Part shown: positions 13,797 to 19,222 of the stretch, piece by piece | Position numbering within the stretch: the stretch's first letter is position 1 | How the letters are laid out: every line of letters begins with the position of its first letter | Origin: Escherichia coli | GTDB taxonomy: Bacteria; Pseudomonadota; Gammaproteobacteria; Enterobacterales; Enterobacteriaceae | Assembly: GCF_003334305.1 (NCBI RefSeq) | Contig: NZ_QOWS01000014.1 | DNA: 64,000 bases | Direction: 5' to 3' (one strand) | Position numbers and translations under genes: made by a program | Notes under the pieces: model-generated | Seen by the model: only the letters and a program-made list of their open reading frames with translations | Database searches by the model: none | What the model was told of the DNA's origin: nothing

Positions 13797-15035
13797 TCAT
13801 ATTGTTCCCCCCGGCATCGCATTCACCAGACCTGAAACCGCCTTCTGCGCCGCCTCTGCGCTTTGTGCACCGGGTACCAGAATCACCTTACGGCACTCCT
13901 CTTCACGTTTTTCGAAAATCTCATATCCCCGGGCGGCCTCTTCAAACGGCATATAGTGGGTAACAATTTCTTCTGGTTTCAGTAATCCTTTCTCAATTAA
14001 CGGTAATAATTCTCCCAGCCATGCGTGAACGTGGGTCTGTCCCATTTTAAACGTCAACCCTTTATCAAAGGCGTCGCCAAACAGGAAACCGTGAATAAAT
14101 CCAGCGTAGACGCCCGGTACGCTAACAATGCCGCCACGCCTGACCGCCGCAATACACTGGCGCAACGCTTTACCGCTGCTGCCCTCCAGTTTCAGGTTAG
14201 TCAGCACCGTTTCCGTGGTGCTGCCTTTCGCTTCAAAACCGACGGCGTCTATTACTGCATCCACGCCCCGGTGACCTGCCGTTTGTTCAATAATTGACTG
14301 TGCCGGATCGCTATCTTCATCGAAATTAATCGGGATCGCGCCGTAGCGGTCAGCGGCGAAACGCAAGCGGTAGGGATGATGATCAACAACAAAAATCTGT
14401 TCCGCACCGAGCAACCGTGCACAGGCGATTGTCAACAATCCCACTGGACCGGCACCATAGACTGCAACGCTTGAACCTTGTTGGATCTGCGCATTTTTTG
14501 CTGCCTGCCATGCCGTTGGCAGAATATCAGAAAGGAAAAGGGCTTTATCATCTGAAAGCAAAGGCGGTACTTTAAACGGCCCCACATTCTCTTTAGGGAC
14601 GCGGACATATTCCGCCTGTCCACCAGGAACGCCACCATACAGGTGACTATAACCAAACAATGCCGCGGGAGCTGGTATCTGTTTTTTATTGAGCGCAGCG
14701 CCTTTACCCGCATTGGTATTTTCGCAGGCGGCATATTGCTGCATTCGACAGAAAAAACAGTCGCCACAAGCAATGACAAACGGAATTACCACCCGGTCGC
14801 CTTTTTGCAAATTTTTTACGTCCTTTCCGGTTTCAACGACTTCCCCCATAAATTCATGACCAAAAATATCGCCATGTTTAACCTGGGGTATTTTGCCTCG
14901 ATAAAGATGGAGGTCAGAGCCACAGATCGCCGTTGCCGTAATACGCAGAATAATATCATCTGCCTGTTCAATGCCCGGATCGGGAACATTTTCTACCTGA
15001 ACGTGATGTGGGCCGTGATAAGTCAATGCTTTCAT
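13797..15035 (-). CDS. ybdR: Zn-dependent alcohol/threonine dehydrogenase-family oxidoreductase YbdR
   Basis: 412-aa [24 protein letters not shown]; GHEFMGEVV Zn-ADH motif. Confidence 0.88.
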
Positions 15036-15255
15036 GCAACCTCCAGAGACAGTTCAAAAAAGAGTCAGTCTTTAAGGGTAGCTATCACAGCGGGAAAACG
15101 GGCGGTACCGCAGGTTTTGGGAGAATTCCTGGTGTTCAGTGAGAATATATTAATCACAGAAACCGTTCGTAAGGAAAAAGAACCAGACAAATATCAGGGA
15201 TAAATATTATAATCATGGCGAATGATTTGTTCATGATTAACAGGGAGAAAGGGTT

Positions 15256-15684
15256 ATGTATAAGACAATCATTATGCCAGTTGATGTATTTGAAATGGAA
15301 TTGAGCGACAAAGCTGTTCGCCACGCTGAATTCCTCGCCCAGGATGACGGAGTTATTCATCTACTTCACGTACTACCCGGGTCAGCCAGCCTGAGCCTGC
15401 ACCGTTTTGCCGCTGATGTGCGTCGTTTTGAAGAGCATCTGCAACATGAAGCAGAAGAACGTCTGCAAACGATGGTCAGCCACTTCACCATCGATCCTTC
15501 CCGCATTAAACAACATGTCCGTTTTGGTAGCGTGCGGGATGAAGTCAATGAGTTGGCAGAAGAACTGGGGGCTGATGTTGTAGTTATTGGTTCTCGCAAC
15601 CCATCGATTTCGACCCATCTGTTAGGTTCTAACGCCTCGAGCGTGATCCGCCATGCCAATCTGCCGGTGCTGGTTGTGCGTTAA
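15256..15684 (+). CDS. uspG: universal stress protein G (UspG/YbdQ)
   Basis: 142-aa [31 protein letters not shown]. Confidence 0.9.
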
Positions 15685-15703
15685 TTGCCAGAATAAATAT
15701 CCC

Positions 15704-15737
15704 GCCCTGCCCGGAGCCATCCCGGCAGGGCTTTTTA
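15704..15737 (+). terminator. rho-independent terminator after uspG
   Basis: gccctgcccgg/cccggcagggc stem followed by TTTTT. Confidence 0.7.
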
Positions 15738-15744
15738 ATGCCAT

Positions 15745-15776
15745 AAAAAAGCCGCCAGGTTTGACCCCGGCGGCTA
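15745..15776 (-). terminator. rho-independent terminator after ahpF
   Basis: minus strand reads agccgccgggg...cctggcggc followed by a T-run, just past the ahpF stop. Confidence 0.6.
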
Positions 15777-15804
15777 AGCAATTGCAGGTGAATCTTACTT
15801 CTTC

Positions 15805-17370
15805 TTATGCAGTTTTGGTGCGAATCAGGTAGTCAAAAGCACTCAGAGAGGCTTTGGCACCTTCGCCAGTGGCGATGATGATCTGCTTGTACGGAACCGT
15901 CGTACAGTCACCCGCTGCGAATACGCCTTTGACGTTGGTTTCGCATTTCGCATCAATGATAATCTCACCCATGCGGTTACGTTCGACTGCGCCTTCCAGC
16001 CAGTTGGTGTTCGGCAGCAGACCAATCTGGACGAAAATACCGGCCAGTTCGATGTTGTGAATATCGCCGCTGACACGATCTCGATATTCCAGACCAACGA
16101 CTTTGCTGCCGTCGCCTTTCACTTCCGTGGTTTGCGCATTCAGAATAATGTCGACGTTTTTCAGGCTGCGCAGTTTGTCCTGCAGAACCTGGTCGGCTTT
16201 CATTTCTGGCGCAAATTCGAGCAGCGTTACGTGCTCAACGATACCCGCCAGGTCAATTGCCGCTTCCACGCCGGAGTTACCGCCGCCGATAACCGCTACG
16301 CGTTTGCCTTTAAACAGCGGGCCGTCGCAGTGCGGGCAGTAGGTCACGCCTTTGGTGCGATACTGATCTTCGCCAGGAACGTTCATGTTGCGCCATTTTG
16401 CACCGGTCGCCACGATAATGCTGCGTGCTTTCAGTACCGCGCCAGAAGCTGTTTCAATCTGATGCAGACCACCTTCAACTGCTGCTGGGATCAGTTTGCT
16501 GGCGCTCTGGCTGTCGATCACATCAACGTCGTATTCATCAACGTGAACTTTCAGTGCGCCTGCCAGCTTCTGCCCTTCAGTCTTCGGTACAGAAATGTAG
16601 TTTTCGATATCAACGGTATCGAGGATCTGACCACCAAAACGTTCGCCCATCAGACCGGTACGGATGCCTTTACGTGCGGAGTAAATTGCTGCAGCTGCAC
16701 CCGCCGGGCCGGAACCAACGATTAATACGTCATAAGCATCACGCTTGTTCAGCTCTTCTGCCGCACGTTTTTCCGCGCCCGTATCAATTTTGGCAACGAT
16801 TTCAGTCAACGTCATGCGGCCCTGACCAAACTCTTTCCCGTTTACGAACACTGCCGGAACGCCCATCACGTTGCGATCGGTGATTTCGTTCTGGAAGGTG
16901 CCGCCGTCAATTGCAGTGTGCTTGATGCGCGGGTTCAGTACGCTCATCAGGTTCAGCGCCTGCACCACGTCCGGGCAGTTATGGCAAGAGAGCGAGTAAT
17001 AGGTTTCGAATTCAAAATCACCGTCAATATGGCGAATCTGCTCCAGCAGAGACTGCGCTTCTTTCGACGGATGACCACCGGTCCATAGCAACGCCAGTAC
17101 CAGCGAGGTGAACTCGTGGCCCAGCGGGGAGCCTGCAAAACGTGGCCCCTGGTTGGAACCTGGGTTGGTGATCAGGAAAGACGGCTTACGCACCGGCAAG
17201 CTGTTATCTTCTTTAAAGGTGACTTTGTCTGACAGTTCTGCGATTTCAGCCAACAGTTCCTTGATTTCTGCCGATTTAGCGCTGTCATCCAGCGTGGCAA
17301 TTAACTCAACAGGCTTGGTCAATTTCTCAAGGTAAGCCTTGAGTTGAGTTTTCATATTTGTGTCGAGCAT
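15805..17370 (-). CDS. ahpF: alkyl hydroperoxide reductase subunit F
   Basis: ORF 15805..17400; start trimmed to the ATG giving [17 protein letters not shown] (521 aa); AGGAGA RBS. Confidence 0.93.
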
Positions 17371-17540
17371 GTTTATCTCCTGGGCTTTAAACATCATCAT
17401 GCAAGCGGCCTCTGCGGCTACCTGGATGCAGCTTGCATCATGGTGCGGGGAAGAAAATCGGGTGCCGCAGCACCCGAAGAATTAGGTGAATTTCCGAAGT
17501 ATTTCGCGCCGGAGTTGGTAGCGCGAAAGACGAAGGAAAT

Positions 17541-18104
17541 TTAGATTTTACCAACCAGGTCCAGAGACGGAGCCAGAGTTGCTTCACCTTCTTTCCATTT
17601 AGCCGGGCAAACTTCACCTGGGTGAGAAGCTACGTACTGTGCTGCTTTGATTTTACGCAGCAGGTCAGACGCGTCACGGCCAATGCCTTCAGCGGTAACT
17701 TCGATTGCCTGGATGATACCCTGCGGGTCAACAACGAAGGTCGCACGGTCAGCCAGACCTTCATCTTCACGCATGTTGTCGAAGTTACGGGTCAGGGCGC
17801 CAGTCGGGTCGCCGATCATCGCATATTTGATTTTAGCGATGGTTTCAGAGCTGCTGTGCCATGCTTTGTGGGTGAAGTGAGTATCGGTAGATACTGCGTA
17901 TACGTCTACGCCCAGTTTCTGCAGTTCTTCGTAGTGGTCAGCAACGTCACCCAGTTCGGTCGGGCATACGAAAGTAAAGTCAGCCGGGTAGAAGAAGAAG
18001 ACGCTCCAGCGGCCTTCGGTATCTTTTTCGGTGATTTCGATGAATTCGCCGTTTTTGAATGCCTGGTTTTTAAAAGGTTTAATTTTGGTGTTAATCAAGG
18101 ACAT
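17541..18104 (-). CDS. ahpC: alkyl hydroperoxide reductase subunit C (peroxiredoxin)
   Basis: 187-aa [26 protein letters not shown]. Confidence 0.95.
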
Positions 18105-18475
18105 CTATACTTCCTCCGTGTTTTCGATGAGATGTAAGGTAACCAATTTTTGCCGATTCGGCTAATGCGTTTCCATTATCAAATCGATAAGTTTTACCTT
18201 ACAACCTTCGTAAGACAACTTTGTGAACTTTGCACCGCCAGCGGCGATAAAAAGTAAAATGGCCCCCTTTCCAGGTGACCGTGTAATCTGAACTACCCTT
18301 TGGTATCTTCAGCGCCTGCCTGCAGGCTGAGGTGTTGCCCTTACAAATGCAACAACGACATGGATTACAACACCCTCATAAACAAAGGGCAATCACCTGA
18401 TCTAAGCTCTTACCTATGACAGTGATAGGTTATGCCTTTTACTCGACTTTTGCACTGACTGAAAAGGACAAATTA
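18105..18475. promoter_or_regulatory. ahpC / dsbG divergent control region (expected OxyR-regulated ahpC promoter)
   Basis: 370-bp intergenic region between divergently transcribed ahpC and dsbG; the OxyR site is placed from knowledge of the K-12 locus, not from a motif found here. Confidence 0.4.
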
Positions 18476-19222
18476 ATGTTAAAAAAGATACTTTTACTGG
18501 CTCTGCTTCCTGCAATCGCCTTCGCAGAGGAACTTCCTTCCCCAGTAAAAGCGATTGAAAAACAGGGCATTACAATCATCAAAACGTTCGATGCCCCCGG
18601 AGGAATGAAAGGTTATCTCGGAAAGTATCAGGATATGGGCGTCACCATCTACCTGACTCCCGATGGTAAGCACGCTATCTCTGGTTACATGTACAACGAG
18701 AAAGGTGAAAACCTGAGTAACACACTTATCGAAAAAGAAATTTACGCACCAGCCGGACGCGAAATGTGGCAACGGATGGAACAATCCCACTGGCTCCTCG
18801 ACGGTAAAAAAGATGCGCCGGTCATTGTCTACGTGTTCACCGATCCGTTCTGCCCATATTGTAAACAGTTCTGGCAGCAGGCGCGCCCGTGGGTAGATTC
18901 TGGCAAAGTGCAATTAAGAACATTGTTGGTTGGGGTTATCAAGCCAGAAAGCCCGGCGACAGCAGCGGCAATTCTTGCCTCCAAAGATCCCGCAAAAACC
19001 TGGCAAGAATATGAATCCTCTGGTGGCAAGCTTAAGCTAAACGTGCCTGCAAACGTAAGTACAGAACAAATGAAAGTGTTAAGCGCCAACGAGAAACTCA
19101 TGGACGATCTGGGGGCAAATGTCACACCAGCTATCTATTACATGAGTAAGGAAAATACGCTGCAACAGGCCGTGGGGTTGCCCGATCAGAAAACGCTTAA
19201 TATCATTATGGGGAATAAATAA
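18476..19222 (+). CDS. dsbG: periplasmic disulfide isomerase/chaperone DsbG
   Basis: ORF 18416..19222; start trimmed to ATG at 18476 ([17 protein letters not shown] signal peptide, 248 aa); CPYC active site. Confidence 0.9.

Follow-up and report, generated by a model that had tools for sequence, protein, structure and literature searches.

Three hairpin modules in the ahpC–ahpF spacer of Escherichia coli: an ERIC remnant, a predicted intrinsic terminator and an RNase III hairpin

Introduction

In E. coli, hydrogen peroxide at low levels is removed chiefly by Ahp, and few proteins of this organism are as abundant as AhpC. A precedent for unequal output from neighbouring genes of one operon is the rplL–rpoB region of rplKAJL–rpoBC, in which a partial terminator and an RNase III site lie between an abundant upstream and a scarcer downstream product. 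Repeats placed between cistrons are also known to act on messenger stability: intercistronic REP/BIME elements stabilize mRNA, for example between malE and malF, and a Yersinia ERIC has been reported to destabilize the upstream mRNA by way of an RNase E site.

The ahpC–ahpF spacer of E. coli K-12 has been mapped in two studies. An RNase III site was located at K-12 position 639695, within the ahpC–ahpF intergenic region, and confirmed with the purified enzyme (Gordon, Cameron and Pfleger, 2017, mBio, PMC5371410). Loss of rnc shortened the half-life of ahpC mRNA from about 14 min to 6 min and left that of ahpF unchanged (Gordon et al., 2017, PMC5371410). Term-seq of K-12 MG1655 placed RNA 3′ ends at 639668 in two data sets and at 639670 in a third (Adams et al., 2021, eLife, PMC7815308). 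The 3′ end at the terminator and the RNase III site have therefore already been mapped experimentally in K-12, and in this respect the finding is already known. What is added here is the conservation of the terminator and of the RNase III hairpin in all 81 Enterobacteriaceae sequences compared, a quantified three-allele ERIC polymorphism within E. coli, and an unusually strong sequence constraint on the RNase III hairpin.

Organization of the ahpC–ahpF spacer

The 64,000-nt stretch of E. coli DNA analysed here (the window) carries ahpC and ahpF on the minus strand, flanked by dsbG and uspG according to its list of open reading frames. From ahpC to ahpF the features are:

17541..18104, minus strand: ahpC coding sequence, 187 aa, stop codon TAA at 17541-17543 (ORF list and RefSeq records of identical sequence)
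17490..17540, minus strand: HP1, a mini-ERIC with the ERIC/IRU end arms ATTTCC...GGAAAT, about 77 central positions missing, and a 9-bp core stem at 17502-17528
17458..17477, minus strand: HP2 stem-loop, UCGGGUGC-UGCG-GCACCCGA, 8 bp of which 6 are G-C, with a 4-nt loop (terminator scan)
17451..17457, minus strand: HP2 U-tract, UUUUCUU, directly 3′ of the stem and interrupted by a C
17391..17446, minus strand: HP3, a single imperfect hairpin without branches, about 20 bp long, that ends shortly before the ahpF ribosome-binding site
17377..17380, minus strand: Shine-Dalgarno sequence of ahpF, GGAG; 6 nt separate it from the ATG and 10 nt from the base of HP3 on its 5′ side (from the sequence)
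15805..17370, minus strand: ahpF coding sequence, 521 aa from MLDTNMK (RefSeq start in identical genomes)

Because RefSeq records with identical sequence begin ahpF at MLDTNMK, the spacer that separates this start from the ahpC TAA is exactly 17371-17540 on the minus strand, the 170 nt proposed in the initial annotation. The ORF list gives ahpF a length of 531 aa by starting it at in-frame ATGs within HP3. Of the cross-genus set described below, only the 4 Escherichia sequences have this extension of 10 codons (17371-17400, minus strand) in frame with ahpF. The GGAG/GGGA block at the ahpF Shine-Dalgarno sequence is conserved in the cross-genus alignment.

The spacer had been described initially as structured and as holding short GC-rich inverted repeats, a description that holds. 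Both of the repeats quoted are present, ggtgccgcagcacc at 17461-17474 within HP2 and cgcgccggagttggtagcgcg at 17505-17525 within HP1, and a third, longer inverted repeat (17392-17412 / 17425-17445) makes up HP3. The spacer mRNA has a minimum free energy (MFE) of -59.2 kcal/mol, compared with -44.0 +/- 4.0 kcal/mol for shuffled sequences (z = -3.8), and none of 200 dinucleotide shuffles folds as well; the structure is therefore real and beyond chance. HP1, HP2 and HP3 appear as three separate hairpins both in the MFE and in the centroid structure, and when folded singly they reach -19.1 kcal/mol (z -5.2), -16.6 kcal/mol (z -5.0) and -23.0 kcal/mol (z -2.3), respectively. A pairing of the first 7 nt of the spacer with the ahpF Shine-Dalgarno sequence was rejected, as it occurs in the MFE structure only and not in the centroid, and its partner sequence is absent from the other alleles. 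A coding role for the spacer was likewise rejected, because the ORFs that cross it, 17344-17544 (66 aa) and 17360-17485 on the plus strand and 17438-17617 on the minus strand, span a region that varies among E. coli strains, with a 74-nt insertion and a 42-nt shorter variant.

For comparison across genera, 80 ahpCF loci were fetched from Enterobacteriaceae genomes, which together with the window give a set of 81 sequences (individual loci carry L numbers). The spacer measures 118-377 nt in the other 80 and follows the same modular plan, so that the ‘unusually long’ spacer of the initial annotation is long when set against operons in general but not for an ahpCF operon. The HP2 and HP3 modules are found in every sequence and the first module is interchangeable. 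It consists of a full ERIC in 36 of the 81 sequences (two in tandem in L027), a short ERIC remnant in 9, REP/PU-like palindromes in 30, and neither an ERIC nor a clear REP motif in the remaining 6. The sequence 5′ of HP2 is unconserved, with an identity of 0.36.

A terminator placed upstream of a gene within a structured leader is also the layout of a regulated attenuator or riboswitch, in which read-through would respond to a signal such as peroxide. The spacer shares this general layout only, and such a function is extremely improbable. The three hairpins fold independently with no competing antiterminator, an Rfam scan of 15000-19000 at E <= 10 gave no match within the spacer, no leader peptide is conserved, and the variable sequence 5′ of HP2 holds ERIC, REP-like elements or nothing interchangeably.

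Two records deserve separate mention. L063 (CACSKA010000002.1), labelled Chryseobacterium sp. 18061, has an ahpCF of the Enterobacteriaceae type with 94% AhpF identity and classical ERIC copies downstream, and is probably a mislabelled or contaminated assembly. In L003 (NZ_CP045741.1, E. coli DH5alpha) deletions at 430-465 remove the 3′ half of HP2, the whole of HP3, the ribosome-binding site and the ahpF start codon, and ahpF is annotated from an internal start; a real lesion and an assembly error are both possible.

Other RNA elements lie on either side of the two genes. Between dsbG and ahpC, at 18249-18342 on the minus strand, there is an Rfam match to the enterobacterial sRNA STnc70 (44.1 bits, gathering score 40), the 3′ end of which coincides with one listed as ‘orphan’ in K-12 Term-seq, 638796, at a distance of 149 nt from ahpC on its upstream side (Adams et al., 2021, PMC7815308). 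This suggests that the ahpC start is preceded, on the same strand, by a small transcript or a leader terminator. Beyond ahpF a strong terminator-like hairpin of 10 bp with a T-run is found at 15775-15750 (minus strand), followed by a second GC hairpin, within 15699-15776, that is a weak look-alike of Rfam ncr1175. An sRNA from the 3′UTR of E. coli ahpF has been proposed from Hfq-CLASH (Iosub et al., 2020).

HP2 and its U-tract

As read from its sequence, HP2 with the adjoining U-tract is a classical intrinsic (Rho-independent) terminator, and independence from protein factors in vitro is predicted. The hairpin is present in 81/81 of the Enterobacteriaceae sequences compared, and its pairing is maintained by compensatory change: 98.5% of the alignment cells are paired, and 6 of the 8 pairs show double changes, in 73 cells. 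None of 500 shuffles pairs as well, and shifted registers give only 28-56% pairing. A T-rich tail is also kept: in 77 of the 81 orthologues, 5 or more of the 8 nt counted from the last stem position onward are T.

The published K-12 3′ ends can be placed on this structure. Positions 639668 and 639670 correspond to 17455 and 17453 of the window (coordinates mapped through L006), and their context, ...GGGTGCTGCGGCACCCGATTT, puts them on the third to fifth nucleotide of the HP2 U-tract (Adams et al., 2021, PMC7815308, Supplementary file 1). The end at HP2 was labelled ‘orphan’ by the authors’ pipeline (Adams et al., 2021, PMC7815308).

Term-seq does not distinguish true termination from exonucleolytic trimming back to a hairpin, and is therefore blind to which of these origins the 3′ end has. 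The end could arise mainly by processing, in which case transcription would read through, RNase III would cut at HP3 and exonucleases would trim the RNA back to HP2, the hairpin serving only as a stabilizer. RNase III cleavage downstream of the 3′ end is indeed real and stabilizes ahpC mRNA (Gordon et al., 2017, PMC5371410). However, HP2 has every feature of an intrinsic terminator, namely a GC stem, a tetraloop and an adjoining U-tract, and the 3′ end falls within that tract at the distance seen at true terminators. A pure exonuclease block would have no need of the T-rich tail; since the U-tract is conserved, an origin by processing alone is the less likely one and is regarded here as unlikely. 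Termination at HP2 is the preferred explanation of the 3′ end.

HP3 and RNase III cleavage

HP3 consists of 20 pairs broken by 1x1 mismatches and extends over about two helical turns, as required of an RNase III substrate. By coordinate mapping, the K-12 cleavage site 639695 falls high in the 5′ arm of HP3, on the C of GCUGCAUCC, at about 17428 of the window, and the cut is 27 nt downstream of the mapped 3′ end at HP2. The orthologous hairpins have 15-23 pairs and are unbranched in 77 of the 81 sequences.

The arms of HP3, CCAUGAUGCAAG and GCUUGCAUGAUGAUGUUUU, are nearly invariant across the genera of the Enterobacteriaceae. The 5′ arm has a mean pairwise identity of 0.88, and the 3′ arm together with the U run that follows it one of 0.96, far above the identity at 4-fold synonymous sites of the flanking genes (0.66 in ahpC and 0.58 in ahpF). 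Although 93.7% of the alignment cells are paired, the arms change so little that covariation is confined to 3 pairs and 12 cells. With covariation near nil, the structure of HP3 rests on conserved complementarity and on the published cleavage, not on compensatory evolution. The apex of the hairpin is variable in both sequence and length (16-28 nt); it is no more stable than its shuffled versions (mean z -0.8), and repeated double changes are seen in one apical pair only.

Small ORFs that start from the AUGAUG runs in either arm were considered and rejected, as their frame, length and stop position vary across the set. Those of the 5′ arm encode 57 distinct peptides. The 3′-arm ORF stops before the ahpF ATG in 48 of the 81 sequences, most commonly in the form ATGATGATGTTTTAA (MMMF*), enters ahpF in a different reading frame in 25 and shares its frame in 4. 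In this region E. coli has TTTAAAG where most genera have TTTTAAG.

The near-invariance of the arms exceeds the known needs of RNase III recognition, which suggests an additional constraint outside the main model. One reading, compatible with that model, is that HP3 has a second, sequence-specific role as the site of a protein or small RNA, or in tuning the translation of ahpF; for example, a trans-acting protein or small RNA may adjust ahpF translation or cleavage under oxidative stress. The identity of the arms relative to the synonymous sites points in this direction, as does the contrast with the terminator stem, which varies freely by way of compensatory changes, and HP3 ends only 10 nt from the Shine-Dalgarno sequence. 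On the other hand, that sequence is left free by HP3 in the predicted fold, HP3 belongs to no Rfam family and has no known partner, and the small ORFs of the arms are not conserved in frame or length. In addition, the stability of ahpF mRNA is the same in the rnc mutant (Gordon et al., 2017, PMC5371410). A second role of this kind is tentatively entertained, although we hold it to be somewhat unlikely.

A further alternative is that most ahpF expression starts at a separate promoter, within the spacer or a short way upstream of it, with the hairpins serving only to insulate two transcription units. A scan for sigma-70 promoters gave no match inside the spacer and one weak match (9/12) within ahpC, in its 3′ part (17677-17650, gene strand); matches over the region number 4, no more than in shuffled sequences (2.3 +/- 1.7). 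The variable apex of HP3 argues against a fixed -35/-10 spacing across it, and RNase III cleavage of ahpC–ahpF read-through RNA has been observed in vivo (Gordon et al., 2017, PMC5371410). A separate ahpF promoter as the main source of its mRNA is therefore very unlikely, and read-through from ahpC is preferred.

HP1 and the alleles of E. coli

HP1 is a GC-rich 9-bp core stem lengthened by the outer arms AUUUCC/GGAAAU. Nucleotides 1-23 and 27-52 of the spacer align to positions 1-23 and 101-126 of the ERIC profile, with profile positions of about 24-100 absent. As both ends of the element are kept and some 77 central positions are gone, HP1 is an internally deleted ERIC remnant. Its termini are identical to the ends of the K-12 ERIC at the orthologous site, but at 51 nt it falls well short of the palindrome of about 127 bp that defines a full ERIC. 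The central ERIC inverted repeat (the ERIC1R/ERIC2 primer region) has no match in the window at up to 3 mismatches, nor in the spacer at up to 4, and the ERIC profile finds no other ERIC copies in the 64-kb window. The insert of the K-12 allele, by comparison, has the ERIC core and matches both ERIC-PCR primer regions. The full K-12 element is present in all of 5,426 complete E. coli genomes, at a median of 8 places per genome, and the 38-nt centre of the remnant occurs once per E. coli genome.

The locus was found in 5,423 of these 5,426 genomes. Aligned representatives fall into three alleles, distinguished by the first module alone:

170-nt allele: mini-ERIC; 2,545 genomes, about 47% of the 5,426; includes the window, strains EC958 and 536, and ST131
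244-nt allele: full ERIC, with a palindrome of about 127 nt in the place of HP1; about 1,764 genomes, about 33%; K-12
128-nt allele: no ERIC; 1,111 genomes, about 20%; O157:H7

The allele-specific searches sum to 5,420 genomes. A few bases on each side of the remnant junction differ from K-12 and the rest of the spacer is identical, so the remnant is not a recent simple deletion of the K-12 copy. The short form is also found in three other Escherichia genomes of the cross-genus set (L007-L009), and in other Escherichia (L007) the HP1 stem has unpaired substitutions. Independent internal deletions of an ERIC have occurred in L019, L059, L072 and L085.

Since 1,111 E. coli genomes and several genera have no ERIC at this position, HP1 is dispensable. 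It is probably a decaying repeat with little or no function, and at most a minor structural feature of the ahpC 3′UTR.

The first module has taken up other repeats elsewhere. REP/PU-like palindromes (GCCGGGTAAACG...CCCGGC, GTAGGCC) replace the ERIC after the ahpC stop codon in L010, L030, L042-L047, L060 and others; such content, within the first 70 nt or so of the spacer, is seen in Enterobacter, Citrobacter, and Klebsiella pneumoniae and its relatives. In L027 (Phytobacter diazotrophicus) the 377-nt spacer, at 1124-1500, holds tandem ERICs of different subtypes, AATTC...GAATT and ATTTCC...GGAAAT, and these mark the unit boundaries of the element. Judged by its contents, the position next to the ahpC stop codon appears to receive intergenic repeats in general, and it is a hot spot for both ERIC and REP elements.

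Proposed mechanism

The window and K-12 share an identical sequence that begins with GCGAAATACTTCGG in the ERIC arm, 12 nt short of its end, takes in HP2 and HP3, and runs as far as the ahpF ATG. For this sequence three things have been shown in K-12: an RNA 3′ end at HP2, cleavage by RNase III both in vivo and in vitro, and the change in the half-life of ahpC mRNA. We infer from these data that termination produces the 3′ end and is only partial, that these events also take place in the present strain, and that the protein ratio follows.

It is likely that the spacer acts as a three-module 3′UTR and leader on the ahpCF mRNA, in which a leaky terminator and an RNase III cut favour ahpC over ahpF. 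The first module would be a slot directly 3′ of the ahpC stop codon that is filled by repeat elements, here the 51-nt deleted ERIC of HP1. HP2 and its U-tract would then act as a constitutive, leaky Rho-independent terminator, at which most transcripts from the OxyR-controlled ahpC promoter would end to give a monocistronic ahpC mRNA protected by the hairpin, with a fraction reading through into ahpF. On this read-through RNA, RNase III would cut HP3 and part the ahpC portion from the ahpF portion. The former would end at HP2, or be trimmed back to it, and be stable, and the latter would begin just upstream of its ribosome-binding site. Terminator and cut together would yield more, and longer-lived, ahpC mRNA relative to ahpF mRNA. 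Because the half-life of ahpC mRNA is lengthened and that of ahpF is unchanged, the cut by RNase III shifts the ahpC:ahpF mRNA ratio directly. An excess of ahpC mRNA fits with an abundant peroxidase, AhpC, that is served catalytically by its reductase, AhpF.

The initial annotation had proposed an attenuator or processing site that sets the AhpC:AhpF ratio. The mapping of 3′ ends agrees with this, as the published K-12 Term-seq ends fall in the U-tract after the ggtgccgcagcacc hairpin (Adams et al., 2021, PMC7815308), and both a terminator and an RNase III site are present in K-12; regulated attenuation is not borne out, and the effect on the protein ratio is deduced from the RNA. An RNase III substrate does exist in the spacer, but it lies in the third hairpin, HP3, and not in either of the repeats quoted. 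The second of these (cgcgcc...gcgcg), if taken as the processing site, must be discarded, being the stump of an ERIC that is absent from about 20% of E. coli and from many genera.

Two further readings go beyond this model. The polymorphism of no, mini- or full ERIC may alter the stability of ahpC mRNA, and hence the AhpC:AhpF ratio, between lineages of E. coli, and/or the arms of HP3 may carry an undescribed sequence-specific function; considered jointly these are rather doubtful. The three natural alleles of E. coli offer a means of testing for an effect of ERIC content on the expression of ahpC.

Comparison with known systems

None of the findings in the spacer would surprise a specialist. 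The spacer illustrates how one promoter can deliver unequal amounts of two partners by means of a leaky terminator and RNase III cleavage. In this it resembles the rplL–rpoB region, in which a leaky intrinsic terminator is followed by RNase III cleavage in a long spacer and expression is unequal within one operon, although the sequence is unrelated and the genes are others. At pflB–pflA, similarly, an RNase III cut downstream of a terminator stabilizes the abundant upstream mRNA (Gordon et al., 2017, PMC5371410). However, pflA has its own promoter beside the site and none is evident for ahpF.

With respect to repeat elements, the spacer of the window contains no REP element, and it is the loci of other genera (Enterobacter, Citrobacter, Klebsiella pneumoniae), with REP/PU-like palindromes after ahpC, that recall the REP/BIME systems. 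HP1 also resembles the ERIC/IRU family (reviewed by Delihas, PMC2229807, PMC3184786). It stands at the site of an ERIC of about 127 nt in K-12 and in 36/81 sequences, keeps both terminal arms, lies in a transcribed intergenic region by a highly expressed gene and folds as a hairpin. It differs in being 51 nt long, in lacking the central inverted repeat and in having a centre that is single-copy in E. coli, and it is thus a remnant and not a full member of the family.

The closest system is the spacer of K-12 MG1655 (PMC5371410, PMC7815308), which is orthologous and has the same terminator hairpin and the same RNase III hairpin as the window. The two differ in the first module: K-12 has a full ERIC, a 244-nt spacer and a 160-nt ahpC 3′UTR, whereas the window has the 51-nt remnant, a 170-nt spacer and a 3′UTR of about 86 nt.
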